From NCBI GenBank assembly GCA_039714075.1, contig JBDLKA010000004.1, forward strand, positions 3,087-67,086: 64,000 nt of DNA, read 5' to 3'. Below the pieces are notes generated by a model. That model saw nothing but the letters and a program-made list of their open reading frames with translations, did no database searches and was not told the DNA's origin. Position 1 is the stretch's first letter; every line of letters starts with the position of its first letter. Positions 4,156 to 64,000 of the stretch are shown here, one piece after another. The position numbers and the translations under genes are program-made. The DNA is from Candidatus Krumholzibacteriota bacterium. GTDB lineage: Bacteria > Krumholzibacteriota > Krumholzibacteriia > LZORAL124-64-63.

Positions 4156-6405
4156 TTATTTGATCAAAACAAGTTTACGGGTCACGGCCCCGTCCACGGA
4201 CTGCAGCCGCGCGAAATACACCCCCGCCGAAACCAGCTGTCCGGTGTTGTCTTTTCCGTTCCAATGGACAACGTAGGAACCGGCCTCTCGATACTCCTCG
4301 ACCAGCGTGCGCACCTTGCGTCCGGCAGCGTCGTGAATCGAAAGGACGACCGGACCCGCTCGTTCCAGTCCGAATTGCATTTCGGTACGCGGGTTGAAGG
4401 GGTTCGGAAACGGGTTGTCCAACCACACCGCGGTCACCTTGTTGCCGGGCAGCAGATTGCCGTCCACCGGGGCGGGGTCCGAGCACTCCCGTCCCAGGAT
4501 CGTCAAGGTGCCGCCGAGCAAATACACATACCCGTGATCAACTTCGGCCTGCCATGCATAGGCACCGGAATGATAATCACCGAGCAGGACAGGCGCCGAT
4601 GGTGAATTCACGTCCACCACGATCATGCCGCTTTGGTATGCCGAAACGTAGGCGGTCTTGCCGTAGACCTCCACGTCCCGGCATCTCCCGAGAGGCAGCT
4701 GACCCACCAGAACAGGAAGATCCCACGAGGCAAGATCATAGATGGAAAGGCCTGTGTTTCCAACAAGATACAGATATCCGCCTGACGCCGTTCCATGGTA
4801 GATATCTTCCGGATGAGATACCGTTGAGACATGGACCGGGGCCAGCGGGGACGCCAGATCAAAAACCGAAATTTCGCCGCCAAAGGGATCGCCGCTTAAG
4901 GCGTAGAGGTGCCCGTCGAGGACGTCCAAAGCCGACAAGGAAAAGCCAAGGTGGTCTCCCACGGCAACCGGGGTATCCGGAATCGACAGATCGTAGACAC
5001 GGAAACCACTCGATTGGATTGCGTACAGGATATCGTCGACAACCAGGCCGTCCACGCGCATCTCGACATCGGTCGCCACGGGATCACCGGTCGGCCAGTG
5101 AAACGAGCCGAAAGTCGAGTGCAGGTATTCGCCATGAATGGCGAATCCAACTTCAAACATGGGTGTGCCGACATTTATAAAAAAACCATGTGAAAAAACA
5201 GGATTTTCGGGGTCACTCAGGTCGAAGACTTCGATAGCCCCGACATCGTACCATTCATCGGAAAGGTCCTCCAAAAAGAAGGCATTCGTGTCCGTAATCT
5301 TAAAGTCCACGGAGGGAATGGCACCCAGGATGTTCGCAGCCGGAGGAGGAACCGTCAGAAGACCTTCGTGATTAACGAGTCTCAGATTATCGAAATAGAG
5401 TAAGCGTTCTCCGACCACTTCCACATGGGCGTTGTCTGCGACTCCGATTCCGTAAACCCTTGTCCAGATTCCGTCAACTTCGGTCAGGTAGTTTACCGAA
5501 CCTTCGGATGGCGCATAGATCATCCCGTTCCCGATGGCAGGTTGGCCGACAATGGGCCGCCCGAAGCTGAAATCCCCCACCTCTTCAATGGCTGCCGGGT
5601 TGGAAAAATCCAGGATCTTCAGGACACTGCTAGAAAGAATGGATCCAAACTGAGAGGGAGGATACTGGTCCAAACGGGCCGCCACCGTCCCGCCTTCGGC
5701 GTCCAGGGCGTCGAACATTTGTCCGTTTGTGGGAGTGGCATAGGTTGTAAATTCACCAAGAAGTACGGGAACGGCCGGTGCCGAAAGATCGTAGGCCCGC
5801 AAAAAGCCCTCGGTTCCAAAGCGACCTCCAACGTACCAGACGCCCGCATCCTCGGCCACACTCAGGGCCCAGTCGACATCGGACAGGGAAACTTCCTCGA
5901 CAGGCGCCGTCGGATCGGAAATGTCGAAAAACCGGAAGCCGTCATCCAGGGCGGCAATGCAGGCAAGACCGCCGACCATCTCCTGATCGACGACTTCGGA
6001 GGCCGAGGCATTCTGCGATCGCTGAACCGGATGGTGCGGATTCGAAAAATCCACCAGCAGCCAGCCACAATTCACGGGATTCGAGGTCTTGAAACCGACG
6101 CTGACCAGGGAGCCCTCGCAGGCGAGGGATGTCGGCCATCCCGCCGAGGAATTGAAATCTCCCAGCACTTCCGGCGCGGCGGCAGGCAAGGCACGCCCCC
6201 AGACCAGGCGCAGACCCGTCCCTGAACCATCTCCGGTGGCGTAGCAGAAATAGTCACCGTCGACCGCCAGTATTTTGAACATGATGGTATCATCGGGAAT
6301 GCTGCCGATTTCGGCCGGCAATTGACCGTAGGGTGTACAATCCGGGGCACCTACAGCCACGGAAGAACAAATGGTCAGCAGGACTATCATGATTAGAGTT
6401 TTCAT
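4156..6405 (-). CDS. Secreted LVIVD-repeat beta-propeller protein with a T9SS type-A C-terminal sorting domain
   Basis: The ORF runs 4156..6450. The signal peptide MKTLIMIVLLTICSSVAVGA begins at M16 (6405). LVIVD-like repeats are present (AYVSAYQSGMIVVDVNSPSAPVLLG). C-terminus NPFNPRTEMQFGL..GVYFARLQSVDGAVTRKLVLIK. Confidence 0.75.
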   Translation of the reverse strand: MKTLIMIVLLTICSSVAVGAPDCTPYGQLPAEIGSIPDDTIMFKILAVDGDYFCYATGDGSGTGLRLVWGRALPAAAPEVLGDFNSSAGWPTSLACEGSLVSVGFKTSNPVNCGWLLVDFSNPHHPVQRSQNASASEVVDQEMVGGLACIAALDDGFRFFDISDPTAPVEEVSLSDVDWALSVAEDAGVWYVGGRFGTEGFLRAYDLSAPAVPVLLGEFTTYATPTNGQMFDALDAEGGTVAARLDQYPPSQFGSILSSSVLKILDFSNPAAIEEVGDFSFGRPIVGQPAIGNGMIYAPSEGSVNYLTEVDGIWTRVYGIGVADNAHVEVVGERLLYFDNLRLVNHEGLLTVPPPAANILGAIPSVDFKITDTNAFFLEDLSDEWYDVGAIEVFDLSDPENPVFSHGFFINVGTPMFEVGFAIHGEYLHSTFGSFHWPTGDPVATDVEMRVDGLVVDDILYAIQSSGFRVYDLSIPDTPVAVGDHLGFSLSALDVLDGHLYALSGDPFGGEISVFDLASPLAPVHVSTVSHPEDIYHGTASGGYLYLVGNTGLSIYDLASWDLPVLVGQLPLGRCRDVEVYGKTAYVSAYQSGMIVVDVNSPSAPVLLGDYHSGAYAWQAEVDHGYVYLLGGTLTILGRECSDPAPVDGNLLPGNKVTAVWLDNPFPNPFNPRTEMQFGLERAGPVVLSIHDAAGRKVRTLVEEYREAGSYVVHWNGKDNTGQLVSAGVYFARLQSVDGAVTRKLVLIK

Positions 6406-8648: not shown

Positions 8649-8661
8649 ACGGGAGACGAGC

Positions 8662-17686: not shown

Positions 17687-17977
17687 ATGAAAAATAGAAT
17701 CCTCAGTCCATGGTTGTTGGCCGTGATGATCGCCACGCTTGCCGCGGGAACCGCTCTCGCTGACATCCCGGATGGCGATGAGCACCCCTGGGACAGCGAG
17801 TCCACAGACCCTGTTCTCGAGGGGGACGAGCATCCCTGGGACAGCGAGTCCACCGATCCAGGTATCGAGGGAGACGAGGGTCCCTGGGACGCCGATTCTG
17901 CCGGAACGCTGGATGCGGCCTCGGCGGAAGCGCTGTTGTTTGCGGAGCAGTTAGCCGAGTTGGCACAGTTGCCGTAG
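17687..17977 (+). CDS. Small secreted acidic tandem-repeat protein (96 aa; signal peptide plus GDEHPWDSESTDP repeats)
   Basis: Strong RBS AGGGAGGGA. Signal peptide MKNRILSPWLLAVMIATLAAGTALA. Two near-identical 13-aa repeats plus a degenerate third (39-nt DNA tandem repeat). Followed by an intrinsic terminator. Confidence 0.6.
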   Translation: MKNRILSPWLLAVMIATLAAGTALADIPDGDEHPWDSESTDPVLEGDEHPWDSESTDPGIEGDEGPWDADSAGTLDAASAEALLFAEQLAELAQLP

Positions 17978-33873: not shown

Positions 33874-35778
33874 CTATTTGGCCAGCAGCATCCGACGCGT
33901 TTCCACTTCGTCCCCAGCATGCAAACGATAGAAATACACCCCCGTAGCCACCGTCCTCCCTGCCTGATCCCTTCCCATCCAGACCTTTTCGTGCTGCCCC
34001 GCTGCCTCGCTGCCGGAGTACAAAGTCCGCACCAGCCGTCCAGCCAGATCAAACACCTGAAGATCCACCTGGCCCGCGCTTTCCAGCTCGTACTTGATGG
34101 TGGTCGATGGGTTGAAGGGGTTGGGCACGTTCTGATGCAGCACCACTCCAGCCAGGACACCCGTACCCGGAACCGGGCTCAACTCGGGCTGGAAAACCTT
34201 CCCCACGAATTCCGGCCGGTCGATAAAGGGATTCCGGTTGCCCTGGATGTCATAGACCGCCTCGTTGCGGTCGACCTCCTTGGCACTGACCGGATCGTCG
34301 GCGTTCCATTCCAGCAACAGGGCCTCGGCCCAGGGCAGCAGTGTCGCGCCGGAAGTCATGTCGCTGCCGGGCCAGCCCGCGTCTTCCCCGAAATACCGCG
34401 TGGTCATGTAGAAGTAGGCGCGGGCGAAATCGCCTTTGTACTCGTCGATGGGTTCGAAGACGGTCCCGCTATAACCCGGATAGGCGCAGGGTCCCAACCG
34501 GCTCCCGTTGAGCGAGGTCCAGGTGGGCGAATTCACCTCGCCGAAAGGAAAGCTGCCCCGCTTGTTGTTCACCTCGTTGTCCGTGGGGACGACCATGAAC
34601 ACGTCGGAATACATGGGAGAGGTCGCGCCGTACCAGCTGCTGGGCCAGGAATGTTCGCGGTTGTAACCGGTTCCCTCGGTGCCGGCGGTTCCCCCCTGGT
34701 CGACGCCGAAAGTGTATTCGTAAGGCGGCGTCCCCCCGGGCACGTCCGAGTACATGTCCCAGACCTTGCCGTTGGGCTTGTCGTCCGTGGTGTAGAAGGC
34801 CGACCATAGGCCGTCGTAACTGATGACCGTATGATTATCGATGATGTTGTGCAGGGCCGCCCGCAGGGGCTCGCCGATCAGACCCTCGGCGGAAGTGTAA
34901 TAACCCGGCGGGATGTTCGCCCCGGGAATGGTATAGGAGTCCTCGCCGGAGACCGTTTCGGCCGGAATGTCGTTGGCCGCGGTGACACTGAAATAGATAA
35001 CGGTTCCCGCGACCTGGCCGGGGATCGGGGTGGCCGTCTGGAAGGTGTCGCCACCGGTGTTGGTCATGGTGATGGGATTGATCAGCGCGCCGGATATCGT
35101 ACCCCAGTTCAGGGTCACGGCCGTGATGTTGGCGACCGCATCGGTGACCGCCGCCTGCACGTCAACCGTCTCGCTTTCCACCGGAGATGCAGGCACCGTG
35201 GTGATGGATCCGATGACCGGACCATCCCCGGCCACCGCGCTGTGCGTTCCCGGCGTGGCTTCGCTGGGATAATCGACGGGAGTGGCCGTCCACTCGGCGG
35301 CGTTATAGGCCGGGCTGGGCGAGGTGACATCCCCGTTCCGCACCATGGTCATGTTCTCGAACGCGACACCGGGCACCACGATGTCGTCGACGACAGTACC
35401 CAAGTCGTTTTTCAACCGGGCGCCGTCACCGATCTTCCCGTTCCAGGTGGAATTGCTGGTCGACCAGGCCTCGGCCGGAAAATCGACCGGGAAGACGTCG
35501 ACCGTGGTCTGGTCTCCCGCCACCAGGGCCTGTCCCGGAGCAATCGTTCCCGACAGGTTCCAGGTAAAGATCTCGACGGAGTTTCCCATCGCCACGATCT
35601 GCCAACCGGTCAGGTCCTCGGCCGTCGCGCCGGAGTTGTAGATCTCGATGTACCGGTCGGTCAGGTAATTGACGCGGGGGTCGCAGAGTTCGGACACCAG
35701 GACGTCGGCCTGCGCGGCCGGAGCCAGGGCGGAAAAAACAAGCAGAACCAAGGCGAGTTGGGCGATGACCATTTTCAT
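33874..35778 (-). CDS. Secreted extracellular nuclease: lamin-tail domain, endonuclease I (EndA/Vvn family) domain and a T9SS type-A C-terminal sorting domain, 634 aa
   Basis: Signal peptide. LTD (VLVSELCDPRVNYLTDRYIEIYNSGATAEDLTGWQIV). Endonuclease_1 motifs REHSWPSSW and GNRNPFIDRPE. C-terminus NPFNPSTTIKYEL..GVYFYRLHAGDEVETRRMLLAK. Confidence 0.85.
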   Translation of the reverse strand: MKMVIAQLALVLLVFSALAPAAQADVLVSELCDPRVNYLTDRYIEIYNSGATAEDLTGWQIVAMGNSVEIFTWNLSGTIAPGQALVAGDQTTVDVFPVDFPAEAWSTSNSTWNGKIGDGARLKNDLGTVVDDIVVPGVAFENMTMVRNGDVTSPSPAYNAAEWTATPVDYPSEATPGTHSAVAGDGPVIGSITTVPASPVESETVDVQAAVTDAVANITAVTLNWGTISGALINPITMTNTGGDTFQTATPIPGQVAGTVIYFSVTAANDIPAETVSGEDSYTIPGANIPPGYYTSAEGLIGEPLRAALHNIIDNHTVISYDGLWSAFYTTDDKPNGKVWDMYSDVPGGTPPYEYTFGVDQGGTAGTEGTGYNREHSWPSSWYGATSPMYSDVFMVVPTDNEVNNKRGSFPFGEVNSPTWTSLNGSRLGPCAYPGYSGTVFEPIDEYKGDFARAYFYMTTRYFGEDAGWPGSDMTSGATLLPWAEALLLEWNADDPVSAKEVDRNEAVYDIQGNRNPFIDRPEFVGKVFQPELSPVPGTGVLAGVVLHQNVPNPFNPSTTIKYELESAGQVDLQVFDLAGRLVRTLYSGSEAAGQHEKVWMGRDQAGRTVATGVYFYRLHAGDEVETRRMLLAK

Positions 35779-43192: not shown

Positions 43193-44620
43193 TCACCTCA
43201 ACAGTATCGCCTTCCTCGTCTCGACCTTCCCCCCGATATCCACGCGGAAGAAGTATTCGCCCGAGGGTACCGCACGGCCGGATGAATCACGCCCCTGCCA
43301 TTCGACGGAATGTTTGCCGGCCGCGTATTGCCGGTCAGCCAGATTCGCGATCAGGCGTCCCCGAATATCGTAGACCAGCACGCGAACCTGATGCGTCTGG
43401 TCGGTGGAAAAAGAGATGGCCGTGGTGGGATTGAAGGGATTCGGCGTGATCCGGATGTCCTGATCGCCGAACAGACCCTTGTTCCCGCCCCACGCGGCCT
43501 CGATCATGTCCGCCCCGCTGATCGGCTGACCGTCATACGTTTCCCCGGTCAGCGAAACCTTGGTGTCGCCGCACTGGATACCGGAATCGGGAACGCGGAA
43601 GTGGAACAGCAGGTCCAGGTCGCCGTCTCCATCCACATCCGTTTCGTGACGGACAGGACCTTTAAGGTTGGCGTGAGCTTCTGCAGTTTCAGCGGGGCCG
43701 AAAAGAACGGTGGCATGATCGACGTTGGTCGCATCGAATTCAGCCGTCGTGAGCAGGGCCACCGGCACAACATGGTTGGCGTGAGGGTTGCAATTGACCC
43801 GGTTTTCATCACTATCGGGTTTCACATCAATGCCGACGTCGATGGTTGCGGGCGCACACTGCGGAATCTGCACCTGGTCCCAGGTCGGGTCGAAATCATC
43901 ACTGTCCGGGGTGCTGCCGCGGGTGGCGTCATTTCCGTTGAACGAGCTGTCGAAAGCGGTCTGACCGGAGCCCTCATCAAACTCCCAGCAGGCCACCAGA
44001 CCCGCTTCGTCGCCATCCAGTTTGGAACACATCATCTGCTGGATCTGCTCCGGCGTGCGCGCGACCTCCCAGAGACGGACCTCATCGATCGAGCCGATGA
44101 TCCCGTCGACGAAATTGCCGAAACGCCCAATCATCACGTCCCTGTCGTACGCGTGGATTTGACCGGACGCTGCCCTGCTGCTCACTTCCACGCCATCCAC
44201 GAAAAGGCGCATCGCCGTTCCGTCATAAGTTCCGGCGACATGCACCCACTGGCCATAGGGCAAGACATCGAGTGGGGACCTCAGCAAGTGGCGCGTACCG
44301 TTGATCGCCAAATCGAACAAAAACTCCTGCGACCGTGAGTTGATGCCCAAATGGTACTGGTAATAGGGAGCGCTGTGACTGGTGAAGGGCTTTTCAATGA
44401 GGGGGCAATTGCCCAGATCCCAGAATTGTCCGGGGATCATGCACCACACTTCGATGGTAATGGCATCGGCGGGATCGAGGGTCTCGTTTCCCGCGGCGTG
44501 CAGATAGTCTCTCCCGTCAAACTGGAGCACATGGTTTGCACCGGCGGCATCCGAACCTGAAAAAAGGAACACGGCGAAAAGAAAAATCAGGAAAGCGCTT
44601 CGGCGCAGATATGGATACAT
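43193..44620 (-). CDS. Secreted LamG / concanavalin-A-like lectin domain protein with a T9SS type-A C-terminal sorting domain
   Basis: The ORF runs 43193..44674. The signal peptide MYPYLRRSAFLIFLFAVFLFSGSDAAG starts at 44620, after a GGGGG RBS. Laminin_G_3-like segment (LQFDGRDYL..GQWVHVAGTYDGTAMRLFVDGVEV..DEVRLW). C-terminus ..GEYFFRVDIGGKVETRKAILLR. Confidence 0.8.
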   Translation of the reverse strand: MYPYLRRSAFLIFLFAVFLFSGSDAAGANHVLQFDGRDYLHAAGNETLDPADAITIEVWCMIPGQFWDLGNCPLIEKPFTSHSAPYYQYHLGINSRSQEFLFDLAINGTRHLLRSPLDVLPYGQWVHVAGTYDGTAMRLFVDGVEVSSRAASGQIHAYDRDVMIGRFGNFVDGIIGSIDEVRLWEVARTPEQIQQMMCSKLDGDEAGLVACWEFDEGSGQTAFDSSFNGNDATRGSTPDSDDFDPTWDQVQIPQCAPATIDVGIDVKPDSDENRVNCNPHANHVVPVALLTTAEFDATNVDHATVLFGPAETAEAHANLKGPVRHETDVDGDGDLDLLFHFRVPDSGIQCGDTKVSLTGETYDGQPISGADMIEAAWGGNKGLFGDQDIRITPNPFNPTTAISFSTDQTHQVRVLVYDIRGRLIANLADRQYAAGKHSVEWQGRDSSGRAVPSGEYFFRVDIGGKVETRKAILLR

Positions 44621-45936: not shown

Positions 45937-48900
45937 TCACTTGACCAGGGACATGCGCCGGGTTTCGGTATGATCCCCGGCCTCGAACCGGTACAGATAG
46001 ATTCCCGCAGGCGCCGGTCGACCCGCGTTGCTCCTGCCGTCCCATTGTTCTTCGTGGCGGCCGGCGGTCATTTTCCGGCCGTCTATCAGGGTGCGGACGG
46101 TCCGTCCCGCGATATCGAATACGGTCAACCGGACCGGGACATCCTTCGCCAGGTCAAACCGGATGACCGTGCTGGGATTGAACGGGTTGGGATGGTTCGG
46201 GAAGAGAGCCGAATGCAACGGCGTGGTTGCATCGGGCACTTCCGAAACCATGTTCACCACGACCGCCGGGCTCTCGTTCCCCGCAAAGTCCGTTGCTGTC
46301 AGGAAGTAATAGCCCGGATTCGGCCCTGATATGGTCAGCATGGTCCCGGTAGTGTGGTCGATCACGACCGCGGTCCCGTCCAGGGTCGGATTGGCGGACC
46401 CGTAGACCGTGAAATAGCGGAAATCCGGCTCGTCATTTTCGTTCCATGCCAATTGGTCGGCCGCCGCCAACACGAATCCCGTCGGAACCGAGGGCGCCAG
46501 GTTGTCCACGGAGTAGCCACTGTCGGGCGCGGCATCGAAATAGACCCCCGGCGTGGCGGTGCGCGCCCGCACGAAAAATACCGACTCGTACATGCCGTCG
46601 GTGATGGTCGAGTCGCCCAGGGTGGGCACGACGACGGCGTACTGGTCCTCGGCGTCGGCCGGCACGGTCGTCACGAAGTGCCAGTCACCGGGCGGGTAGG
46701 CCTTGTCCCATTCCGCCACGCCACTTTCCATGGATGCCAGGCTGTCGATGCGGCGGTAGACGGCATACTCGGTTATCGGCATCGCACTGCCGACAAAGTC
46801 ATAACCGGAACGCTCCCACGCGAGGCTCACCTGGCGGCCCTGGTCCCCGGGCACGTCGACGATCGCATCGACGGTCGGAATATCGTACAGCCACTCGAAT
46901 TGAAGGTTGGAACAGCTGGGATTCATCTGCGGCCGAACCACAGTGTGGTTGGAGCGCCATTTCAACTGGGTACCGGGGCTGGCCAGGTTGTACCAATTGC
47001 CGTCGGCGGCCACCGGCGCATAGGCCGTGCCCCCGTCGGAGCTCAGTTCCCAGGTAACATCTTCGGTCTGGATCGTGGACAAACGAGCCTGAACGGCATT
47101 GCTGGAAAGGGTGGCGAAAACCGTCGAATTGGCATAATTCGACCAGGGATCGAACATTCTCTGGGAAACGGCCACGGTTTCCATCCCGTACGTGCTATTG
47201 CCGAGGTAAACGTGGTTTCCGGCCACGGCCACACTAGCCGCCGTGTAGGAACCGTCGTAGGCGTCGATCAGGGTTGGAATGGCCGGGTCCGTGATGTCCA
47301 ACCGGACAATGCCGTGGAGTTGCACCCCGACGAACAGGTCGTCACCCCTGACCCGGACGTCCAGCGCGGAGGCGGATGTTGCATAGGTTCCGATTTGCGA
47401 CGGCACCGCCGGATTGGACACGTCCAGCACGACGACACCGTTGTACGAGTCCGCCACGTACGCCTGGTCGCCGTCAACAGCCACATCATAGGCATATGAT
47501 GTATCGAATACCGTAACCGGGGAAAAGCGAACTCCGGCACTCGGAAAAAATTCCAGGACCTGGATGCCGGGCGCCCCCAGGGCGACGTAGACATAATTAC
47601 CCTCGATATCCAGACTCCAGCCCGTGCCCGCCAGCCCCATCGGGCCCATGACTCCGATGGCGGGCAAGGAACCGAGACTGAAGGCATAGATGCTGCTGCC
47701 CCCGAGCAGAGCGGCCCTGTCCCCTTCGATGGCGATGGCGCTGAAGGAACCAGCGGTCTTGTTGGCCAGGGTCGGATTGGACAGGTCGCTGATGTCGAGC
47801 ACCACGAAGCCCTGAATGGCATCGGCGATGAAGGCATAATCACCGGCTACTTCCACCTGCTTGCAGCTCCAGGTGTAAGCCGGGTCCTTGAATTGGCCCA
47901 GGAGATTCGGGTTTTCCGGATCGTTGATATCATAGATGTAAAGTCCGTTGTTCCCCGCGGCAACGAACGCCACATCGCCTACGATGGCAGCGTGGGTGTA
48001 TCCCACGGCGCCGGCTTGGCCGCCAACGGACTTCAGTGGAATCGTCTTGGCCGCCTGATAGCCGTAAAGGAGGCCGCCTGTGGCAGCCAAATAGGCGGAG
48101 TTTCCGGCCACGGTGACGGCCATGCCCGAAGCGGTGGCCGTACCCGTGGTGATCGTCTGAATCGAAGCGGGATCCCGGACGTCGAGCAGGGTGAGTCCGT
48201 CGGTGTAGTCCGCTACATATGCGTATCCGCCCACAATGCATACGTCACGGGAGTCGCCGCCCGTTGCTGCGGCGCCGACCTGGACCGGAAGCGCCGGGTC
48301 GGTGACGTCCAGCACCAGGAGTCCCCCGGATCCGTCGGCGACATAGGCGGTATTGCCTTCCACGAAAAGGCCGTAGGCATTGCCGGGCGTGATCTTGAAA
48401 CCGACCTGCAACATGAGGGACGGATCGCTGACGTCGAAAATCCGGTAATGGTGGGTGTAGCTGACCGAATGAAGAAGGTCTCCGTCCAGAACCAGGTCTC
48501 TGACCGTGGAGGTGGTCGTTATCGTGTCCAGTACGTTGGGTGCCGTGGGGTCCATGATGTCGATCGCATGGATTCCACCGTAATCACTCGCCAGAAACGC
48601 GGTATTCCCGTCGACAACTACATCATAGGCGGATCCGTACGGGTCGACATTGCCTATCAAAACCGGCGTGGCCGGGTCGGAAATATCGAGAATCTGCAGA
48701 CCGCTCCCGCCGTCCGCCAGATAGGCGATGTTGCCGTCGACTGCAATCCCGTATGAGGTGCCGGTTGTGTTGTAACTTCCTGCTATCGAAGGCGAGAGCG
48801 GATTACTGATGTCCATGACCACCAGGCCGGCCGTGTATGCGGCAATGTAGATGTAGTTTCCATCCACCACCATGTCCCGCGGTTGTCCGGTAAGTATGGC

Positions 48901-49104
48901 CTGGAAATCCCAGTCCATGTAGAAGGGGCCCATACGGATTTCCCCGTCCGCCGTCGACCAGACCGCCGAGGTGCTACCTTTGTAAGTGGTTGTGGTGAAA
49001 TCCTCTTCAAAAAAGCCGGCCCCCACCGCCAGGGTCGGCATGAGGCCGGCCGTCACGATGGCCAATACCAGCGCGCAACCCAGTTTCTTCATTCTCGAAT
49101 TCAT
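45937..49104 (-). CDS. Large secreted LVIVD-repeat beta-propeller protein with FN3-like region and a T9SS type-A C-terminal sorting domain (~1055 aa)
   Basis: The ORF runs 45937..49284. The signal peptide MNSRMKKLGCALVLAIVTAGLMPTLAVGA starts at 49104, after an AAGGGGAGA RBS. More than ten LVIVD repeats (e.g. AYLADGGSGLQILDISDPATPVLIG). C-terminus ..GIYLYRFEAGDHTETRRMSLVK. Confidence 0.85.
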   Translation of the reverse strand: MNSRMKKLGCALVLAIVTAGLMPTLAVGAGFFEEDFTTTTYKGSTSAVWSTADGEIRMGPFYMDWDFQAILTGQPRDMVVDGNYIYIAAYTAGLVVMDISNPLSPSIAGSYNTTGTSYGIAVDGNIAYLADGGSGLQILDISDPATPVLIGNVDPYGSAYDVVVDGNTAFLASDYGGIHAIDIMDPTAPNVLDTITTTSTVRDLVLDGDLLHSVSYTHHYRIFDVSDPSLMLQVGFKITPGNAYGLFVEGNTAYVADGSGGLLVLDVTDPALPVQVGAAATGGDSRDVCIVGGYAYVADYTDGLTLLDVRDPASIQTITTGTATASGMAVTVAGNSAYLAATGGLLYGYQAAKTIPLKSVGGQAGAVGYTHAAIVGDVAFVAAGNNGLYIYDINDPENPNLLGQFKDPAYTWSCKQVEVAGDYAFIADAIQGFVVLDISDLSNPTLANKTAGSFSAIAIEGDRAALLGGSSIYAFSLGSLPAIGVMGPMGLAGTGWSLDIEGNYVYVALGAPGIQVLEFFPSAGVRFSPVTVFDTSYAYDVAVDGDQAYVADSYNGVVVLDVSNPAVPSQIGTYATSASALDVRVRGDDLFVGVQLHGIVRLDITDPAIPTLIDAYDGSYTAASVAVAGNHVYLGNSTYGMETVAVSQRMFDPWSNYANSTVFATLSSNAVQARLSTIQTEDVTWELSSDGGTAYAPVAADGNWYNLASPGTQLKWRSNHTVVRPQMNPSCSNLQFEWLYDIPTVDAIVDVPGDQGRQVSLAWERSGYDFVGSAMPITEYAVYRRIDSLASMESGVAEWDKAYPPGDWHFVTTVPADAEDQYAVVVPTLGDSTITDGMYESVFFVRARTATPGVYFDAAPDSGYSVDNLAPSVPTGFVLAAADQLAWNENDEPDFRYFTVYGSANPTLDGTAVVIDHTTGTMLTISGPNPGYYFLTATDFAGNESPAVVVNMVSEVPDATTPLHSALFPNHPNPFNPSTVIRFDLAKDVPVRLTVFDIAGRTVRTLIDGRKMTAGRHEEQWDGRSNAGRPAPAGIYLYRFEAGDHTETRRMSLVK

Positions 49105-49297: not shown

Positions 49298-51355
49298 CTA
49301 CTTCAACAGCGTGATCCTCTGGACGAAGCTCCGGCCACTTGCCTGCAACCGCAGGAAGTAGACCCCGCTCGCCTGCCTGCCGGCGTTCCAGGTCAAGCTG
49401 TGATGGCCGGCTGTCTGCTCCTGCGCCACCAACGTCCGGACCTTTTCGCCGGCCACGTTGTAGACACTCAGCTCGACCGGACCGTCGCGGTCCAGGGTAT
49501 ACGCGATCTTCGTGACCGGGTTGAAGGGATTGGGACTGACACCTTCGATGCCGAGGGTGCCCGCGACCTGGTCAAGGACGGGCGGATCGGCGTGCATCAG
49601 CAGGAGGACGTCCGACCCTGAATATTCTTCGCCGCCCATTTCGAAAGTCAGCTCCAACTCGACGCAGAATTTCTTGGTCGGCACCACATCGGGCGGCAGC
49701 ATGGCCAGGATGGCCGCCACCACTTCCTGGGTATCGAACTTGATGGTCATATCGAGGAAGCCGTCCGGACCATCGGTCGAGCAGCTGTTGCAATCCAGCA
49801 ACTCGCCGTCGTAGGGAGTGGCGACATCCTCGAAAGCGGTCCGAATCGGCACTACGAAGGCGTTTTCCAGATCCTCTTCACCCATCCTGAGAGGCAGCGG
49901 CAGATCCGCGGTCACCGGCGCTACCCCTTCCAACCGGATCGAAGCCGGATCAATCATGGTCACGTCCACTTCGTCCGTGCCCAGGATAGCCACCGGCAGC
50001 ACACCCTCACCCGTTGCGTTGACCGGATTGGGACAGGAGGTCGGCTTGATGTCGACGAAGATATCGGGAGGCTCGAGCTCCGGTACTTCGGTGGCGTTGA
50101 GGATATTGATATACCAGGCGGTCGCGAGGGGGCCATACCAGGCCGAGTACCCGCTCCAGCTCCCATCGGGGTTTTGAATGTCCACCAGGTATTGGCAGTA
50201 GTGGGAGTACCAGTCGTCCGCGGCCGAGGCCAACGGATCCTCGGCAAAGCCGATCGTATAGCCGCCGGTGGCAGCCGCCATCCCCGTACCGACCAGAATC
50301 GGTTGTGCCAGGGAAAAGACCACATCAGTCAGGCCGTAGACGGACAATCCCTTGTAGACGGCCCACATGGCATAGGGGTGATTGAAGTTGCCGTACCAGG
50401 TGCCGCTGGGGAAGGTGTTCCACCGGCCGTTGATGAAGTTGATGGCGGCCTGGACGGACGGATGCGAGACCGCCCGGCCGACGACCGCAAACTCCAGCAG
50501 CAGGCCGCCGGTCTTGCTTACGTTGACATATGACGTGGGAGAGCTGTAGCCGGAACCGCCACTGGTGTCGTTCTGGACATAATCAGCCCAAAGTTCCAGT
50601 TCGTCCCGAACGTATTGCGGAGCCCCCAGTCCCCAGTCGGCGGCATACAGGTAGGGCAGGGCGCCCCACTGCGCCGTGGAATTGTCGGAGCTGCCGTAAT
50701 TGGCGTCGTAGCGCCAGCCGCCCCGGTAATTGCCTGTGTTGGGCTCGACCTGCCCCCAGCTGAACCAGTCGACCAGGTCCTGCATGAGTTGGGCCCAGGT
50801 CAACCCGCTGACCGCTGTAGAACCCATTCCGATGACGGTGTTTTTGCCCAGCCGCTCCCCGAGCGCATAAACGGTCGGGACACAAATCCCGGTCGTGTAG
50901 ACGTTGCGGTTGGGAACACCGATGTTGAAATAGATGGCCTGGTGGTTGCCGCCGTCGTTGGTGAAGATGCCGTCATTATTGTAGTCCTCGGCATAGCGTG
51001 TGTAGACGGCCAACTCAACGCCGAAGCGACTGTCCACTGCCGCCCGGTTGAGCATGTACAGGACCGCCCGGCCCACGACATCCCCGTAGTTGACGCCGTT
51101 CATTTCAAAGTCGACGCCGGGCAGCCATTCCTCTTCGACAAAAGCCAGGGTTGCCGCCGCGGTGGTGGCCAGGGTCCCGTCGTTGCTCAAGTTCCAGTAA
51201 CCTTCGCCTCCGCTGACGACCTGGGTTTGGGCCAGCCAGACCAGGGCGGTGTCGATGGCCGCCTGTTTCTGCTGCTCGGTAGCGGCCAGAGCGCTGCCCC
51301 CAAGTACCAGGACAAGCAGGGCAACGGCAATGATGGTGAGAGAATAGTTCCTCAT
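49298..51355 (-). CDS. Secreted protein with prenyltransferase/squalene-cyclase-like (alpha/alpha-toroid, QxxxGxW-type) repeats and a T9SS type-A C-terminal sorting domain
   Basis: The ORF runs 49298..51376. M8 at 51355 follows a GAGGGGGG RBS. Signal peptide. PFTB/SQCY-like repeats (LVWLAQTQVVSGGEGYW, IQNPDGSWSG). C-terminus NPFNPVTKIAY..GVYFLRLQASGRSFVQRITLLK. Confidence 0.65.
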   Translation of the reverse strand: MRNYSLTIIAVALLVLVLGGSALAATEQQKQAAIDTALVWLAQTQVVSGGEGYWNLSNDGTLATTAAATLAFVEEEWLPGVDFEMNGVNYGDVVGRAVLYMLNRAAVDSRFGVELAVYTRYAEDYNNDGIFTNDGGNHQAIYFNIGVPNRNVYTTGICVPTVYALGERLGKNTVIGMGSTAVSGLTWAQLMQDLVDWFSWGQVEPNTGNYRGGWRYDANYGSSDNSTAQWGALPYLYAADWGLGAPQYVRDELELWADYVQNDTSGGSGYSSPTSYVNVSKTGGLLLEFAVVGRAVSHPSVQAAINFINGRWNTFPSGTWYGNFNHPYAMWAVYKGLSVYGLTDVVFSLAQPILVGTGMAAATGGYTIGFAEDPLASAADDWYSHYCQYLVDIQNPDGSWSGYSAWYGPLATAWYINILNATEVPELEPPDIFVDIKPTSCPNPVNATGEGVLPVAILGTDEVDVTMIDPASIRLEGVAPVTADLPLPLRMGEEDLENAFVVPIRTAFEDVATPYDGELLDCNSCSTDGPDGFLDMTIKFDTQEVVAAILAMLPPDVVPTKKFCVELELTFEMGGEEYSGSDVLLLMHADPPVLDQVAGTLGIEGVSPNPFNPVTKIAYTLDRDGPVELSVYNVAGEKVRTLVAQEQTAGHHSLTWNAGRQASGVYFLRLQASGRSFVQRITLLK

Positions 51356-53701: not shown

Positions 53702-53734
53702 TCGTATTCCGTTCATCTCAAGCCGGTGCTTTCT

Positions 53735-54454: not shown

Positions 54455-54650
54455 GGTCTCTCCAAATTATTTACAAACAGCCCGTTTGTTGATCGAAAGC
54501 ATTATATCACAGGGGTTCTGGAATATTGAGTCATTTGGGGAATCGAATCAACTGGTTGGAAATTGGATCCTGGAATTATGCCTGAAAACCGGGACCCGGA
54601 GCAATCCGGGCCCCGATTGACCATCCAGGGGCCGCCCCTGGTCGTAATAA

Positions 54651-55629: not shown

Positions 55630-56574
55630 CTATTTGATCAACGTCATCCTCTTCGTCTCGACATAGTCGCCGGCCTCGAGGTGGTAGAAGTAGACGCCGG
55701 CAGGAACGATTTGGCCGTTCATGTCTCTTCCTCGCCAATCGACTTCGTTACGGCCCCGAACTGCGATCTCATCGTTCATCAGGACATTCACCAAACGTCC
55801 GGCTACGTCGAATACGCGCAGACTCACTTTCTGTTCTTTCGGCAGGCTGAAGGCAATCGTCGTTTGGGGATTGAAGGGGTTAGGGACCGCATCCAGAAGT
55901 GCGGTCCTCTCCGGCATCGGCAGACTTGCGCTCACGGCGTTGACCGTGAACGAGGTCGGAAAAACCGGCTGGGTAGAGTTATTGCCGGTCCAGTTCGCCG
56001 GGTTGTTGATGGCCGCCAACAACTCGGCGGCGGTGCCGGTGGTGGGACCGGTATAGCTGTAGTTGTCCATCTCCAGCGCCATCGCCACGTTCGCGCCCGA
56101 GAGGGCGGCGGGCAGGGCCGAAGTGTTGGAGGAGGTCGCGTCTGCCTCCCAAGCCGTGCCGTTATCGTGGTAGCCGTAGAGGAGCGTGCCCGTAAGGACC
56201 CCGCCGCCGTCGATGGAACCCTCGAAAGCGAAGATCTGGTCGCCGCTGGATGAGAGGTTGAAGCCGCCATCAACCCCCGGCATGTAGACCACAGTACCGG
56301 CGGCGAGGCCGCCGGCAGGTACGGTGTAGGTGACGACACCCTCACCAATGCGGAAGACAGTCGTATTGCGCCACCCGTTGTCCGTGAACGATATCTCGGT
56401 GCCTGCGTCGATGGTCGTCAAAGCGACGAAGGCGAAGGCCTTCGCCAAGGGGCTAATGTCCGACCGGAACCCGACGATGGCGACGTCACCAGAGGTGAGC
56501 TGGGCGTTGGTGATCGTCGCGGAGGCCGTGATCAGCCCGAAGACCAGAAGCCCAATGACCAGACGAGAATTCAT
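55630..56574 (-). CDS. Secreted hypothetical protein with a T9SS type-A C-terminal sorting domain, 314 aa
   Basis: Signal peptide. The N-terminal domain is unassigned. C-terminus NPFNPQTTIAFSL..GVYFYHLEAGDYVETKRMTLIK. Its start overlaps the stop of the FHA-histidine kinase gene by 4 nt. Confidence 0.7.
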   Translation of the reverse strand: MNSRLVIGLLVFGLITASATITNAQLTSGDVAIVGFRSDISPLAKAFAFVALTTIDAGTEISFTDNGWRNTTVFRIGEGVVTYTVPAGGLAAGTVVYMPGVDGGFNLSSSGDQIFAFEGSIDGGGVLTGTLLYGYHDNGTAWEADATSSNTSALPAALSGANVAMALEMDNYSYTGPTTGTAAELLAAINNPANWTGNNSTQPVFPTSFTVNAVSASLPMPERTALLDAVPNPFNPQTTIAFSLPKEQKVSLRVFDVAGRLVNVLMNDEIAVRGRNEVDWRGRDMNGQIVPAGVYFYHLEAGDYVETKRMTLIK

Positions 56575-59072: not shown

Positions 59073-60836
59073 TCACTTGAGCAGCATCATCTTCCTGGTC
59101 TCTACCAGGTTGCCCGTTTGGAGCTGGTAGAAATAGATACCGCTGGAGCGACCGCGGGCATCCCACGTCACCGCGTGCATGCCTTCACCCAGGACACCAT
59201 CGACCGGGGTATCGACCAGACGGCCGCGTGCGTCATAGACGCGCAGGGCGGTGTATCCCTCGTGCGGAAGCACGAACTGGAACACCGTGGTCGGATTGAA
59301 CGGATTCGGATGATTGGCCAGCTGGACCGCACCGGTCGCGGGCAGGCCGCGGCGGTACACGTCGCCGCTCTCGCAGCTGCGTGTGGTCACGTTCGAGGCC
59401 GGATCGTAGGTCAGCGAAGCGTGGGTAACGTCGGTCACCTCGAAGCACCACTCGCCCGAGGGGTTCTTCAGCTTGGGCGTCGAGAAGGACGCGACGCCGG
59501 TCGAACCTGTCAGGGAGCTCAGGGTCCCGCTGTTGGGGCCGTCATAGCTGACGGTCACCGTGGCGCCGGCCGCAGGCGCACCGCCGTCGTCGACGATGGT
59601 GACACTGCAAAGGCCGGTGTTGTTGGGCCCGGCGACCTTGCGGCTGACGGCAATGTCAGAGACGTACATCGTGCTGCCGCCGCTGCCCGGCTCGGTGACC
59701 GTGATGTACCCGTTCCTGGTCAGGGTGTCCGAACCGTCGCCGTTGGCCACCGTCAGACTCACGTTGTAGCTGCCCGCGGCGGTGTAGGTGTAGCTCGGAT
59801 TCTGGGCGGTCGAGGTGCCGCCGTCGCCGAAGGTCCAGTCCCAGCTCGTGGGCCCGCCGGTGGACTCGTCGCTGAACGCCACGGTCAGCGGGTAGTCGCC
59901 GCTGGTGGGGGTCCCGCTGAAGGCCGCCGTCGGTCCGGTGGGCGTCGTGCCGCCGTACATGGTCGGGCGGTAGAGGGCCATCTGCTGGTTCATGCGCGTG
60001 GTCTGGTCGGCCGTGAACTCGTACATGCAGTAGTCGTCCGTGTAGTCCATGAAGTTGGTGATGGGGTCGATGCCCGGAGCGGAGCAACTGTCGCGACCCT
60101 CGGGGCACCCGTAGGCCGGGGAGCTTTCCTGGGGAGTGTCGTCGCAGTAGTCGTTGGGCTCCGTGCAGCCGTCCTGGAAGGTGTGATACAAGCCGAGGAA
60201 GTGACCCGTCTCGTGGGTGGCCGTGTCTCCCTCGTTGTAGGGATCGGCCCAGCCGCCGGGGACCGAGCCCCAGAGGCAGACGACGCCGTGCAGGTAGCTG
60301 TCCTCGGGATACATGTCGGGGAAGGTCGCGTAGCCCAGCAGCCCGCCGCCGATGTCGCAGAAGTAGAGGTTGTAGGTGGTGGCCGGATCGATGGCCAGGG
60401 CCTGCTTCATCTGGACCATCTGGTTGCTGCCGTAGCGGTGGGTGGACCACCTGGTATTGTAGGTGCGGTCGATGCTTGCCAGGGAGAAGCTGAACCCGGT
60501 GCCCTGGTAGGCGGCGTTGAGTACGTCCATCTGGTCGTAGATGTAGGAATCGGGCACGTCGGCGTAGCCGTCATCGTGGGCGACGACGTGGATGGCGACC
60601 GGAATCACGACGCCGGCCTTGTCGCGCATGAAGCCGCTGGCCTTGAGCCAGGCATCGACCGCCTGGGCGTTCCGTTCAATGTCGTCGGCGGTCGGGACAG
60701 GCGTGGAGCAACGGACCCCCTGGACCACGGCTCCGGCGGAATTCTGATAGGTGATGTCGGCGGCCATGACGGCCGTCCCGAGCATCAGGATAGATAGCGA
60801 CAACAACATGAATCCCAATGGCTTGAATCTCTCCAC
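59073..60836 (-). CDS. Secreted M43-family (pappalysin/cytophagalysin-like) zinc metalloprotease with a PKD domain and a T9SS type-A C-terminal sorting domain
   Basis: GTG start after an AAGGAG RBS. Signal peptide. HETGHFLGLYH zinc-binding motif. PKD (DWTFGDGGTSTAQNPSYTYTAAGSYNVSLTV). C-terminus NPFNPTTVFQF..GIYFYQLQTGNLVETRKMMLLK. Confidence 0.85.
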   Translation of the reverse strand: MERFKPLGFMLLSLSILMLGTAVMAADITYQNSAGAVVQGVRCSTPVPTADDIERNAQAVDAWLKASGFMRDKAGVVIPVAIHVVAHDDGYADVPDSYIYDQMDVLNAAYQGTGFSFSLASIDRTYNTRWSTHRYGSNQMVQMKQALAIDPATTYNLYFCDIGGGLLGYATFPDMYPEDSYLHGVVCLWGSVPGGWADPYNEGDTATHETGHFLGLYHTFQDGCTEPNDYCDDTPQESSPAYGCPEGRDSCSAPGIDPITNFMDYTDDYCMYEFTADQTTRMNQQMALYRPTMYGGTTPTGPTAAFSGTPTSGDYPLTVAFSDESTGGPTSWDWTFGDGGTSTAQNPSYTYTAAGSYNVSLTVANGDGSDTLTRNGYITVTEPGSGGSTMYVSDIAVSRKVAGPNNTGLCSVTIVDDGGAPAAGATVTVSYDGPNSGTLSSLTGSTGVASFSTPKLKNPSGEWCFEVTDVTHASLTYDPASNVTTRSCESGDVYRRGLPATGAVQLANHPNPFNPTTVFQFVLPHEGYTALRVYDARGRLVDTPVDGVLGEGMHAVTWDARGRSSGIYFYQLQTGNLVETRKMMLLK

Positions 60837-61065: not shown

Positions 61066-64000
61066 TCACCTGACCAGCATCATCTTCTGCAACAAATCCC
61101 CCGCACCGGTCTCCAGTTTCGAAAAGTAGACTCCCGAAGCAACCGCCCGGCCGCGACCATCGGTGCCGTTCCACACAACCTCGTGTTCGCCGGCTGGCAT
61201 GACCTCGCCGAGCAGCGTCTTCACCAGTTGGCCGCGGGCATCGAAAACCCGCAATTCCACAGGTCCGGATGACGGCAGACTGAAGCGGATGCCCGTCATG
61301 GGGTTGAACGGATTCGGAGCGATCCTCATGGACAATTGCGGCCGCGGGGTGTTCCCGTTGTCCAGCGCGAATTCCCCGTCGTTCAGACCGGCCACCGCCA
61401 TCGCCACGTCACCGGAAGCCGGCAAGGTTGGGTGGATCTCCCCCTCGAGGACCACCGAGGGGGGTTGCCCTTCCGAACCGCTGCCGGATCCCACCCAGAA
61501 GTAGGCCGGCTCCGCATCGGTAACCGAAACGCGCATGTGCACGAGTTGGAGAGGTCGATCGGAAAGCGTGCGGCGGGTTACGGGATACCCCACGACCAGG
61601 CCGTCGCCGGCAGTGAAATCGAGACCGGTTCCCACCAGGTCCTGTTGGTGGACGACGACGTTTCCGCTCACCCGAATCCGCAGGTCGAAAGCCTCGATGC
61701 CGGTCTGGGCGGCGGAACCGTGCAGAACGACATAGGCATCGATCTGCTCGCCCGGGTCAAGCATGCGCGAGCTCCAGATTCCCGCCGCGTCGAAAACAAC
61801 TCCCATGGTTCCAACGAGCCGGGTCCCGGCCGACCCGCCCCCGGCCACGATCGTCTTGGCCGGAACCGGGCACGACACTCCCATGACCGGACCGAGCTTG
61901 GCCACATCGGACAGGTTGATCATCCCGTCCCAGACGAAATCCGCGGCATAGTCGTACGCTTCACCGAAATAGATGCCGGCAAAATCGGCCACGTCATTCA
62001 GGGACACCTCGAGGTCGCCCGTGATGTCGGCGCCGTTGACGAAATACTCGAGGCCGTCAAGCCCGCCCGGGTAGCTTGTCGTGTTCAACAGCGGATCATC
62101 CACGCTCACCTGCAGCAACTCGCCCGGTCCGCTATGGCCGCCGGCGAAAAGAACTCCGCTGATGGTCGTTGCGCCGGTTGCGTCCGTCGGGCCATCAGCC
62201 GTCAAGGGAGAACCGGGGCATTGGGTCCAGCCGCCGTACTGGGATCTGACGCTTATCTTTTCGGCCGGGAAGCCCACGACCGGATCGCCGAACCCGTCGA
62301 CAACCTGCACACCAATGGCAGCATCCACTTCGATTGGCGCCGCACCGGATACGCCGTCCCAAGACAGGGCCGCGGTCAGCGGATGGCCCAGGCCGTCGGG
62401 CGTCGCGAAGAGGGAAACCGGTCCGCCGAGGGCCTGCACGGGGAAGACGGTCACGTTGATCTCGCCCGCAGGTTCGGGTTCTGATCCGGCGGCATAGTTC
62501 TGCAGGATGTCCTCCAGGGGCAAGGAGCGATCGAACAGGGCGACAAGGTGAAGCTCGCCGAGCCAGGGCCGGTCACCCGTCAGTTCGTTGGCCACTCCCA
62601 GGCGGTAGGATCCATCCCAGTTCGAAAAATCCCCGGTTGTCTGACCGTTGACCCGTTCCACCCCGTCGACGAAAATCCTGGTCAACCCGGCGCTGTTGCG
62701 AGTGAACACCACATGGGACAATTCCGTGGTCAGAGTCCCTACCAGGGTCGCGAGTGCGGGTTTCCCGTTCAGGTCGGTGGTCGTCGACCGCAGCCGCACT
62801 TCGTAGACGTCCGAGGCCTCTCCGTAGACACCCTGCCCGAGGGTGAAATTCCGCGTCCCGGTATCAGGCGAGAGGGTCACGATGCGGGCGGGTCCGTTCT
62901 GGGTGAGGTTGGCCGGCTTGATCCAGGCCTCGATGGTGATCTCGTTGGTGGCCGTCACCGCGTCGATGAGTTTGGTCGAAGCTCCCGCCGTGCCGATCAC
63001 CGTCGAGCCGTTGACGGACAGGGCGCCGGCCAACCAACCCACGGCGCCGGGGTCGTCGATGACCAGGTCGGCCGGAGTCCCCACTCCGGACAAGTCGTTG
63101 ACCGTATTCCCGCCGCCCTCGTTGAAATCATACAGGACGACCTGGCCCGCCGTGGCCCGGGACCCGGGTACCAGCACGGTGAGGACGGCCTCATCGCTGA
63201 CATCGCCGCCCAGCCCGTTGGTCACCACGCAGCGGTAGAGATCGCCGTCGTTGACGGCCGCAAGCGGTGGGGTCGTGTAGGTGGAATCGGCGGCGGCGGG
63301 AATATCCATCCCATTGACCTGCCACTGGAAGGAAAGCGGGTCGGCACCGACCGCGACGACACCAAAAGTCGCGGTGGCTCCTTCGAGGGCGAACGTGCTC
63401 GAAGGCTGGGTGACCACACTGGCGGGGACATTCGAATAGTCCACGTACCGTACGACCACGCCCGGCCCCGGCCAAAGGTATTCCGCGCCATGGTGGGAAC
63501 TGGCGGAATAGACCGTGACGGTATTCGTGCCGTTCTGCAGAATGTTCGTGGGGATTTCGATCTGGTCGAACGAATAGGAATGGTCCTCGCCGAATACGGG
63601 GGTGGTCCAGCCGTTCACCCGCGTCCAGTGGACCTCTCCGGGCTCGGCTTCACCATTGAGCCCGTTCCAGGTGGCGACAAGAAGGCGCGCCGACTCGGCG
63701 TTGACCAGATCGTGCCCTGCCGGAATGACGAAGTCGCTGGAGCGGGTCCGGCCGGCCCTCACCCAGTATTTCTCCGGAACACCGGTCGGACGGTACATCG
63801 CGACACTGATTCCGGGGCGGCTGAGGGTCAGGCCCGACACCCGGTCGGTGACGAACCACAAACCATTCGCATCCCGGATGCGGGCGACGACTTCCATCCC
63901 GCCGGCCGGCTGGTCGGGAATCCAGGAGTTGTCCCAGGACACCGAGAAGGGCGAAGAGATCGTCGTGCCGATGTGATTGCGGATCATCACCGAGGTGTCG
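61066..64000 (-). CDS. Large secreted multi-domain protein (Ig-like / LamG concanavalin-like domains) with a T9SS type-A C-terminal sorting domain. Partial: the N-terminus lies beyond the window end.
   Basis: The ORF track starts at a GTG at 63990, but the frame stays open to position 64000 and no signal peptide is present, so the gene continues off-window. LamG_3-like segment (..YRLGVANELTGDRPWLGELHLVALFDRSL). C-terminus NPFNPMTGIRFSL..GVYFSKLETGAGDLLQKMMLVR. Confidence 0.8.
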   Translation of the reverse strand, partial: DTSVMIRNHIGTTISSPFSVSWDNSWIPDQPAGGMEVVARIRDANGLWFVTDRVSGLTLSRPGISVAMYRPTGVPEKYWVRAGRTRSSDFVIPAGHDLVNAESARLLVATWNGLNGEAEPGEVHWTRVNGWTTPVFGEDHSYSFDQIEIPTNILQNGTNTVTVYSASSHHGAEYLWPGPGVVVRYVDYSNVPASVVTQPSSTFALEGATATFGVVAVGADPLSFQWQVNGMDIPAAADSTYTTPPLAAVNDGDLYRCVVTNGLGGDVSDEAVLTVLVPGSRATAGQVVLYDFNEGGGNTVNDLSGVGTPADLVIDDPGAVGWLAGALSVNGSTVIGTAGASTKLIDAVTATNEITIEAWIKPANLTQNGPARIVTLSPDTGTRNFTLGQGVYGEASDVYEVRLRSTTTDLNGKPALATLVGTLTTELSHVVFTRNSAGLTRIFVDGVERVNGQTTGDFSNWDGSYRLGVANELTGDRPWLGELHLVALFDRSLPLEDILQNYAAGSEPEPAGEINVTVFPVQALGGPVSLFATPDGLGHPLTAALSWDGVSGAAPIEVDAAIGVQVVDGFGDPVVGFPAEKISVRSQYGGWTQCPGSPLTADGPTDATGATTISGVLFAGGHSGPGELLQVSVDDPLLNTTSYPGGLDGLEYFVNGADITGDLEVSLNDVADFAGIYFGEAYDYAADFVWDGMINLSDVAKLGPVMGVSCPVPAKTIVAGGGSAGTRLVGTMGVVFDAAGIWSSRMLDPGEQIDAYVVLHGSAAQTGIEAFDLRIRVSGNVVVHQQDLVGTGLDFTAGDGLVVGYPVTRRTLSDRPLQLVHMRVSVTDAEPAYFWVGSGSGSEGQPPSVVLEGEIHPTLPASGDVAMAVAGLNDGEFALDNGNTPRPQLSMRIAPNPFNPMTGIRFSLPSSGPVELRVFDARGQLVKTLLGEVMPAGEHEVVWNGTDGRGRAVASGVYFSKLETGAGDLLQKMMLVR

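Follow-up and report, generated by a model that had tools for sequence, protein, structure and literature searches.

The subject of this analysis is a stretch of 64,000 nucleotides (the window, taken at its full length) from a Candidatus Krumholzibacteriota bacterium, contig JBDLKA010000004.1, in which nine minus-strand genes, designated here A to I in order of position, encode proteins that share one C-terminal domain (CTD). We consider these to be nine independent genes for Sec-exported proteins with diverse passengers, each of which ends in a type IX secretion system (T9SS) sorting domain of type A, in a subtype resembling the immunoglobulin (Ig)-like domain of the flagellar protein FlgD, and we assign to this reading a probability of about 0.8. 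Directly observed in its support are the identity and strictly terminal position of the domain, its fold, its exchange for other tags in homologues, the signal peptides and the lineage of the organism.

Nine genes of the window share one terminal domain

The open reading frame (ORF) listing of the window contains nine long minus-strand ORFs ending at positions 4156, 33874, 38886, 43193, 45937, 49298, 55630, 59073 and 61066. The initial annotation had described nine genes with these stops and a common C-terminal domain, and the ORFs, the translated C-termini and the profile searches below agree with it. Over about 85 aa the translated C-termini reproduce the earlier pattern, PNPFNP.T.I.F.L...G.V.L.V.D..GR.V..L......G.H.V.W.G.D..G..V.SGVYF..L..G...ETRKM.L.K. 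The NPFNP motif, which had been ascribed to all nine proteins, is found in eight of them; gene C has NPASS in its place.

A hidden Markov model (HMM) of the nine copies was run on the 844 segments between stop codons in the six frames of the window and gave exactly nine matches (E 1e-31 to 1e-40); all nine copies end at a stop codon and occur singly in their proteins. To avoid the circularity of a nine-copy model, we chose a leave-one-out design, by which each omitted copy was recovered with E values of 6e-20 to 6e-35. These models matched no other six-frame segment of the window at E<=10, so that neither internal nor extra copies were detected. The same terminal position was observed in loci of close relatives, where 33 of 33 CTDs finish 0-5 residues ahead of the stop codon. 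The last CTD residue is K or R in all nine window proteins and in 26 of the 33 in relatives.

Pairwise amino-acid identity among the nine copies ranges from 27 to 55%, and their DNA matches are 76 nt long or shorter. Because the identity is so low and the DNA matches are so short, the copies are, as judged from their sequences, old and diverged. A recent duplication of a CTD cassette was ruled out on the same grounds.

The terminal domain corresponds to a T9SS type A sorting domain

The initial annotation had proposed that the shared domain is a T9SS type A sorting domain in a FlgD-Ig-like form, detectable by TIGR04183 and PF18962. The NCBIfam model TIGR04183 (T9SS type A sorting domain, cut-off 23 bits) was reached by eight of the nine proteins with 24.3-37.3 bits, and PF18962 was above its cut-off in two. 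The Pfam model FlgD_ig (PF13860, cut-off 27 bits) was above its cut-off in six proteins, gene C among them, and every one of the nine passes at least one of these three curated thresholds. Together with the Sec signal peptides found in all eight complete proteins and a fold nearest to the CTDs of PorU and PorZ, these matches bear the proposal out.

When the CTD profile was compared with the sequences in the PDB, the only match from end to end was the CTD of Porphyromonas gingivalis PorU (6za2; profile positions 4-85, E 2e-4), which has a FlgD-like W-D...G...G-x-Y segment like that of the window CTDs. The last 92 residues of gene B were modelled with AlphaFold from an alignment of 29 sequences, and the result was a seven-strand beta-sandwich with a predicted local distance difference test (pLDDT) score of 93.8. 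The model is in accord with the literature, in which the T9SS CTD is an Ig-like sandwich of seven strands that carries its export signal in the last two (PMC4804311). A Foldseek search of the model against the PDB listed the PorU CTD (6za2, TM 0.72) and PorZ (5m11) first and FlgD Ig domains next, with two cargo CTDs lower down, 8qb1 and 8glk_D, the latter from NucA in the translocon complex; the fold by itself does not separate the CTD from FlgD.

The window proteins resemble known type A cargo (TIGR04183/PF18962), such as P. gingivalis RgpB and Flavobacterium johnsoniae NucA, in their terminal seven-strand Ig-like sandwich of 80-90 aa, the PNP-type start, the G-x-Y strand, the K/R-ended last strand, the Sec signal and the very diverse passengers, which include nucleases and metalloproteases. 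They differ from the Bacteroidota cargo in an extra FlgD-like W-x-G-x-D-x-x-G segment, in weak sequence similarity, and in belonging to a host of the Krumholzibacteriia, in which their secretion is a prediction. With PorU and PorZ they share the best full-length sequence match (PorU) and the best fold match, as well as the FlgD-like insert of PorU; unlike these two, which are components of the machinery, they have neither a Peptidase_C25 nor a PorZ-like body. PorZ is a protein that keeps its CTD (PMC11611037).

A type B CTD (TIGR04131/PF13585 CHU_C), which is likewise a terminal beta-sandwich serving as a T9SS signal, was considered and rejected. TIGR04131 gave 17.4 bits against a cut-off of 35, in gene D only, and the CHU_C matches were weak and below threshold (19-23 bits against 27). 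No PorP/SprF-like gene was found among the window genes with Pfam and NCBIfam.

Signal peptides and passenger domains of the nine proteins

Sec signal peptides with an n-region, a hydrophobic core and an AxA-type site were recognised in all eight complete proteins, as judged by eye and hydropathy rather than by a dedicated predictor. For four genes the true start lies downstream of the longest ORF start, namely at 6405 (A), 44620 (D), 49104 or 49092 (E) and 51355 (F). The passenger domains named in the initial annotation were recovered throughout.

Gene A (4156..6405, CTD at about 4159-4413) encodes a signal peptide, MKTLIMIVLLTICSSVAVGA, from the ATG at 6405, followed by LVIVD beta-propeller repeats and the type A CTD; the scores were 52 bits for Pfam LVIVD, 35.7 for FlgD_ig and 29.6 for TIGR04183, and the leave-one-out E value was 2.5e-28. 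The G+C content at third codon positions (GC3) of this gene is only 0.63, which is atypically low, and the gene may be horizontally acquired. The second LVIVD protein is the product of gene E (45937..49104, CTD at about 45940-46194), in which the signal peptide MNSRMKKLGCALVLAIVTAGLMPTLAVGA, from the ATG at 49104, precedes seven LVIVD repeats forming a beta-propeller (248 bits over 7 stretches) and a type A CTD with 27.9 bits for TIGR04183.

A nuclease and a protease are among the passengers. Gene B (33874..35778, CTD at about 33877-34131) combines a signal peptide (...APAAQA|D), a lamin-tail domain (LTD, 47.9 bits) and Endonuclease I (Endonuclease_1, 242.7 bits) with a type A CTD scoring 33.9 bits with TIGR04183, and gene H (59073..60836, CTD at about 59076-59321) combines a signal peptide (...GTAVMA|A), an M43 metallopeptidase (Peptidase_M43, 57.7 bits), PKD (PKD_4, 62.3 bits) and an Ig-like domain with a type A CTD that reaches 37.3 bits.

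LamG domains occur twice. In gene D (43193..44620, CTD at about 43196-43450) a signal peptide from the ATG at 44620 is followed by a LamG/concanavalin-like lectin domain (Laminin_G_3, 80 bits) and a type A CTD (FlgD_ig 39.2 bits, TIGR04183 27.6). Gene I (61066..64000, CTD at about 61069-61323) consists of Ig, LamG (Laminin_G_3, 68 bits) and a type A CTD (FlgD_ig 40.7 bits, TIGR04183 24.3); its open frame leaves the window, whose edge cuts off the N-terminus. Gene C (38886..41885, CTD at about 38889-39152) has a signal peptide (...VVPVSA|E) and a BNR/FG-GAP region in which FG-GAP_3 is strong (64 bits) and BNR weak (E 0.007), and ends in the divergent CTD without NPFNP, which was recovered by the HMM of the other eight copies at E 5.8e-20.

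Gene F (49298..51355, CTD at about 49301-49540) encodes a signal peptide, an (alpha/alpha)6 toroid of terpene-cyclase-like fold, a beta-rich linker region and a type A CTD (TIGR04183 35.9 bits). Gene G (55630..56574, CTD at about 55633-55887) encodes a signal peptide (...ATITNA|Q), a 200-aa domain that gave no family match even at E<=1, and a type A CTD (TIGR04183 32.6 bits, PF18962 27.5).

Two observations concern the surroundings of gene G. Upstream of it, on the same strand, a cytoplasmic gene with FHA and HATPase_c (histidine-kinase-like) domains (56571-58238, minus strand) has a stop that overlaps the start of gene G by 4 nt, which suggests that a signalling protein and a secreted one are encoded together in an operon. 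Between genes F and G lies a minus-strand block (51690-55298) of lower G+C content (55% against about 61%), which may be horizontally acquired. It holds four signal-peptide or lipoprotein genes, encoding an M28 peptidase, an NHL/6-blade propeller, a lipoprotein without family and an fn3 lipoprotein.

Homologous passengers carry other terminal tags

The passenger of gene F had no sequence match in Pfam or the PDB. A model computed from 38 homologues shows 12 helices arranged as an (alpha/alpha)6 toroid (pLDDT 91.9, predicted TM-score 0.92); among solved structures, Foldseek placed it nearest, at TM 0.45-0.49, to class II terpene cyclases, squalene-hopene cyclase, beta subunits of prenyltransferases and thioester domains of alpha2-macroglobulin. 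A match to SQHop_cyclase_C was found in 5 of the 38 homologues. The label of an SQCY-like toroid given in the initial annotation is thus right as a fold class. In the 38-member passenger family, FlgD_ig was found in 19 proteins, Por_Secre_tail in 17, PEP-CTERM in 6, VPDSG-CTERM in 1 and dockerin in 2. This family of secreted toroids (homologues P0271-P0390) has no Pfam model of its own and, in one phylum or another, is joined to no fewer than four kinds of C-terminal module for sorting or anchoring.

A second case was met in relatives of the window. In three of their loci (L037, L042 and L043) an M36 metallopeptidase of about 1300 aa lies next to the ABC-F gene and ends in a T9SS-type CTD, and the best matches of these peptidases are the NCBI models for myxosortase- and rhombosortase-dependent M36 peptidases, with more than 1400 bits for the myxosortase-dependent one. 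They are a clear case of sorting-signal replacement. ORFs of PorU size with a CTD that adjoin ABC-F in relatives had been considered as PorU candidates and were rejected, being these M36 peptidases and other cargo; the CTD ORF beside ABC-F in locus L029 is different from the M36 peptidases and has no assigned family.

Because the same passengers carry other C-terminal tags or anchors in the homologues of other lineages, the terminal domain behaves as a swappable address label. The signals of the PEP-CTERM/exosortase and the myxosortase/rhombosortase systems take the same position on homologues of the same passengers and are functionally analogous labels of this kind; unlike the folded Ig-like CTD of 85 aa, they consist of a short motif and a transmembrane helix and are processed by membrane sortases. 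The toroid and the M36 peptidases are a clean illustration of one extracellular enzyme being re-addressed across phyla.

Weighing the sorting-domain assignment

The lineage of the window was derived from its ABC-F protein, which is 95, 88 and 85% identical to proteins of metagenome-assembled genomes (MAGs) labelled Candidatus Krumholzibacteriia, with MAGs of Candidatus Eisenbacteria coming next; the G+C content of the window is about 61%. These identities support the placement in the Fibrobacterota-Chlorobiota-Bacteroidota (FCB) superphylum, across which the T9SS is stated in reviews to be distributed (PMC11205867).

By analogy with the Bacteroidota, the signal peptide would bring each protein to the periplasm, where a T9SS translocon would recognise the CTD in its folded seven-strand form, mainly through the final two strands with their K or R end. 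A PorV-type shuttle would then pass the protein to a PorU-type sortase, which would cut off the CTD and either release the protein or anchor it on the cell surface. The machinery for these steps is likewise presumed by analogy.

Several observations weigh against the assignment to the T9SS, and they concern both the domain and the machinery. As to the domain, gene C gave only 15.8 bits with TIGR04183, below the cut-off, while passing PF13860 (37.9 bits against 27). The central 55-65 residues of the CTD have flagellar FlgD Ig domains as their best matches among PDB sequences (E 1e-7 to 1e-5) and are thus nearer to FlgD Ig (E 1e-7) than to the Bacteroidota cargo CTDs in the PDB (E 0.04-0.2). Furthermore, a profile search of 1.84 billion representatives matched 457,390 clusters (297,386 at E<=1e-10), and its top scorers were giant proteins of up to 7612 aa in which the Ig core recurs as 5-28 internal tandem copies, so that the core alone is no proof of sorting. 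As to the machinery, Pfam and NCBIfam searches of all other genes of the window detected no T9SS component, and phmmer searches with the PorU and PorV of Parabacteroides distasonis as seeds gave no match in either the window or the loci of relatives (1.23 Mb), a null result that is expected because these are single-copy genes. Some reviews still restrict the T9SS to the Bacteroidota (PMC11611037).

The observations on the domain could mean that it is merely a structural or adhesive Ig module of FlgD type without a role in secretion, and that the nine proteins are ordinary Sec-exported periplasmic or surface proteins. FlgD structures also stand among the top fold matches, thousands of large proteins contain the core in internal tandem repeats, and JGI annotates proteins with near-identical domains as 'FlgD', whereas the NCBI name for such proteins of Zixibacteria, Cloacimonetes and KSB1 is 'T9SS type A sorting domain-containing protein'. 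Several results speak against a purely structural module. In all 42 of its occurrences the domain is present once and at the very end of the protein. Its passengers are unrelated to one another, and on the same passengers it replaces PEP-CTERM, myxosortase or rhombosortase signals. Its conserved K/R-ended last strand is missing from the internal repeats, which match profile positions of about 3-77 only, and TIGR04183 is passed by eight of the nine proteins. Flagellar FlgD itself (PF13860; 7eh9, 3osv) has a similar fold and aligns with the central 55-65 residues, but it has neither an NPFNP start nor a terminal K/R strand and does not serve secreted enzymes as a C-terminal tag, and the window proteins lack the N-terminal domain of FlgD. 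It was rejected as an identity for these genes, since the full-length equivalog models gave 16-33 bits against cut-offs of 230-383 and only the Ig part aligns. We therefore regard a structural module without any sorting role as extremely unlikely. The Ig core is thus a general building block that serves in some proteins as a structural repeat and in others as a sorting tag; in the window it occurs once per protein, at the terminus and with its K/R-ended last strand intact, which is the sorting-tag form.

Another explanation keeps the domain as a true sorting tag but assigns its handling in this lineage to a divergent or different outer-membrane pathway of export or anchoring in place of the canonical T9SS of the Bacteroidota. 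Besides the failure to find the machinery in the window or the relatives' loci, this is favoured by the subtype itself, whose NPFNP start and W-x-G-x-D-x-x-G-x-x-V-x-S-G-x-Y segment set it apart from the cargo CTDs of Bacteroidota. The searchable literature also contains no report of a T9SS in Krumholzibacteriota and no direct statement on one in Eisenbacteria or further candidate phyla of the FCB group. The P. gingivalis PorU CTD has the same FlgD-like segment, however, and is the best full-length match in both sequence and fold; moreover, the NCBI type A model spans FCB phyla and is matched here above its cut-off. On balance, we think a different pathway improbable. It is very unlikely, in particular, that Krumholzibacteriota have no canonical T9SS and that the terminal domain is the label of a different or strongly divergent export or anchoring system of the non-Bacteroidota FCB phyla; if this were true, hundreds of thousands of 'T9SS type A sorting domain-containing' annotations would be mechanistically mis-assigned. 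We accordingly retain the T9SS type A assignment.

PorV was also sought in metagenomes with further seeds from Emticicia and an alignment of PorV from three species. The best 80 loci, ranked by similarity to the seeds, were all from gut Bacteroidales, and the scan carries no information on Krumholzibacteriia. As a side observation, one sequence listed in PLSDB as 'plasmid 23' of P. distasonis (L081, NZ_OY725768.1, 388 kb) carries porU, porV, ispF, a uvrD-like gene and other housekeeping genes, and looks like a chromosome fragment mislabelled as a plasmid.

Density, orientation and conservation of the nine genes

The initial annotation had called the density of these genes exceptional. The loci of 60 close relatives contain 29 terminal CTDs in 887 kb, or 2.1 per 64 kb, and the loci labelled Krumholzibacteriia or scoring highest contain 11 in 251 kb, or 2.8 per 64 kb; these backgrounds are neighbourhoods of one gene (ABC-F) and not random samples. 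Nine genes in 64 kb thus represent a 3-4-fold enrichment over relatives, with a Poisson P of 3e-4 to 2.5e-3 that has to be read against the roughly 60 windows of 64 kb in one genome; for the eight genes in the last 30 kb the Poisson P is 1e-5 to 7e-5. The counts are over-dispersed in relatives, where small clusters occur as well (3 in 6 kb in L011 and 3 in 10 kb in L051). With a 3-4-fold enrichment and an arrangement that is not conserved, the term exceptional is overstated. Extrapolation from the loci suggests that genomes of this lineage carry about 100-170 such genes.

It is conceivable that the clustering is functional, the genes forming a co-regulated 'secretome island' devoted to one task, for example the degradation of one polymer, like a polysaccharide utilisation locus. 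The density, the four additional signal-peptide or lipoprotein genes between F and G (M28 peptidase, beta-propeller, two lipoproteins) and the orientation would fit such an island, all nine CTD genes being on the minus strand as against 14 of the 32 other genes (hypergeometric P 0.002, calculated for genes that are not independent draws). Synteny argues against it. Gene F has orthologues of 82-84% identity in two related MAGs with entirely different neighbours, and in the ABC-F loci of relatives, the one neighbourhood covered, only gene B has a positional orthologue, in the closest relative (L001, 78% identity). In addition, the passengers are heterogeneous (nuclease, protease, lectins, propellers), unrelated plus-strand genes intervene (cation antiporter, PAP2, O-methyltransferase, cupin), the CTDs have long since diverged, and there is no pattern of transporters and regulators typical of utilisation loci. 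We consider a functional island unlikely. The clustering is best read as a secretome-rich stretch of the genome and not a conserved functional island, and the strand bias may be local co-orientation. Altogether, a large share of the local coding capacity, 30% of the window, would go to surface or extracellular proteins.

Other features of the window

A complete class I benzoyl-CoA reductase cluster (12926-17575, plus strand) comprises, in this order, bcrC, bcrB, bcrA and bcrD, which abut or overlap. The NCBIfam equivalog scores were 484 bits for BcrC (cut-off 421), 678 for BcrB (487) and 354 for BcrD (313), and 552 for BcrA, just below its cut-off of 578. The fourth gene (16703-17575) is missing from the gene call, which was based on GC3, and came to light when the sequence itself was read. 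The bcrABCD trait has been reported in 12 of 40 Krumholzibacteriota MAGs (PMC10936416), and the cluster of the window matches it. Two further regions, 1-3572 (minus strand) and 6681-9945 (plus strand), hold a second HGD-D dehydratase-type subunit and a BcrAD-type activase beside an NDP-forming acyl-CoA synthetase that is cut by the window edge, with a 3-hydroxyacyl-CoA dehydrogenase/enoyl-CoA hydratase fusion and a thiolase nearby; these genes are probably part of the lower benzoyl-CoA pathway or of another acyl-CoA pathway.

Downstream of the bcr cluster, a gene at 17687-17977 (plus strand) encodes a secreted protein of 96 aa with three tandem acidic repeats resembling GDEHPWDSESTDP, and a terminator-like hairpin lies 3' of it near 18010-18035. 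Next, at 18072-25972, come three adjacent genes for paralogous Ser/Thr protein kinases, of which two lie on the minus strand and one on the plus strand; their products have near-identical N-termini and C-terminal PD40 beta-propeller or TPR regions. Scans of the window for tRNAs and Rfam families returned no matches.

Significance of the nine genes

The nine genes are further members of a very large family that is already annotated, and apart from their local density they are an ordinary case of a very common arrangement. Proteins of this kind are labelled by standard annotation pipelines as it is, so that the present understanding stays as it was. Their importance is modest, and they add to the record of a phylum whose secretion biology goes undescribed in the searchable literature. 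The initial annotation had inferred a secretion-heavy lifestyle with polymer degradation and adhesion, which is a reasonable suggestion from the gene content: the predicted secreted set of a nuclease, an M43 protease, and lectin-like, propeller and toroid proteins would fit a polymer-scavenging lifestyle.

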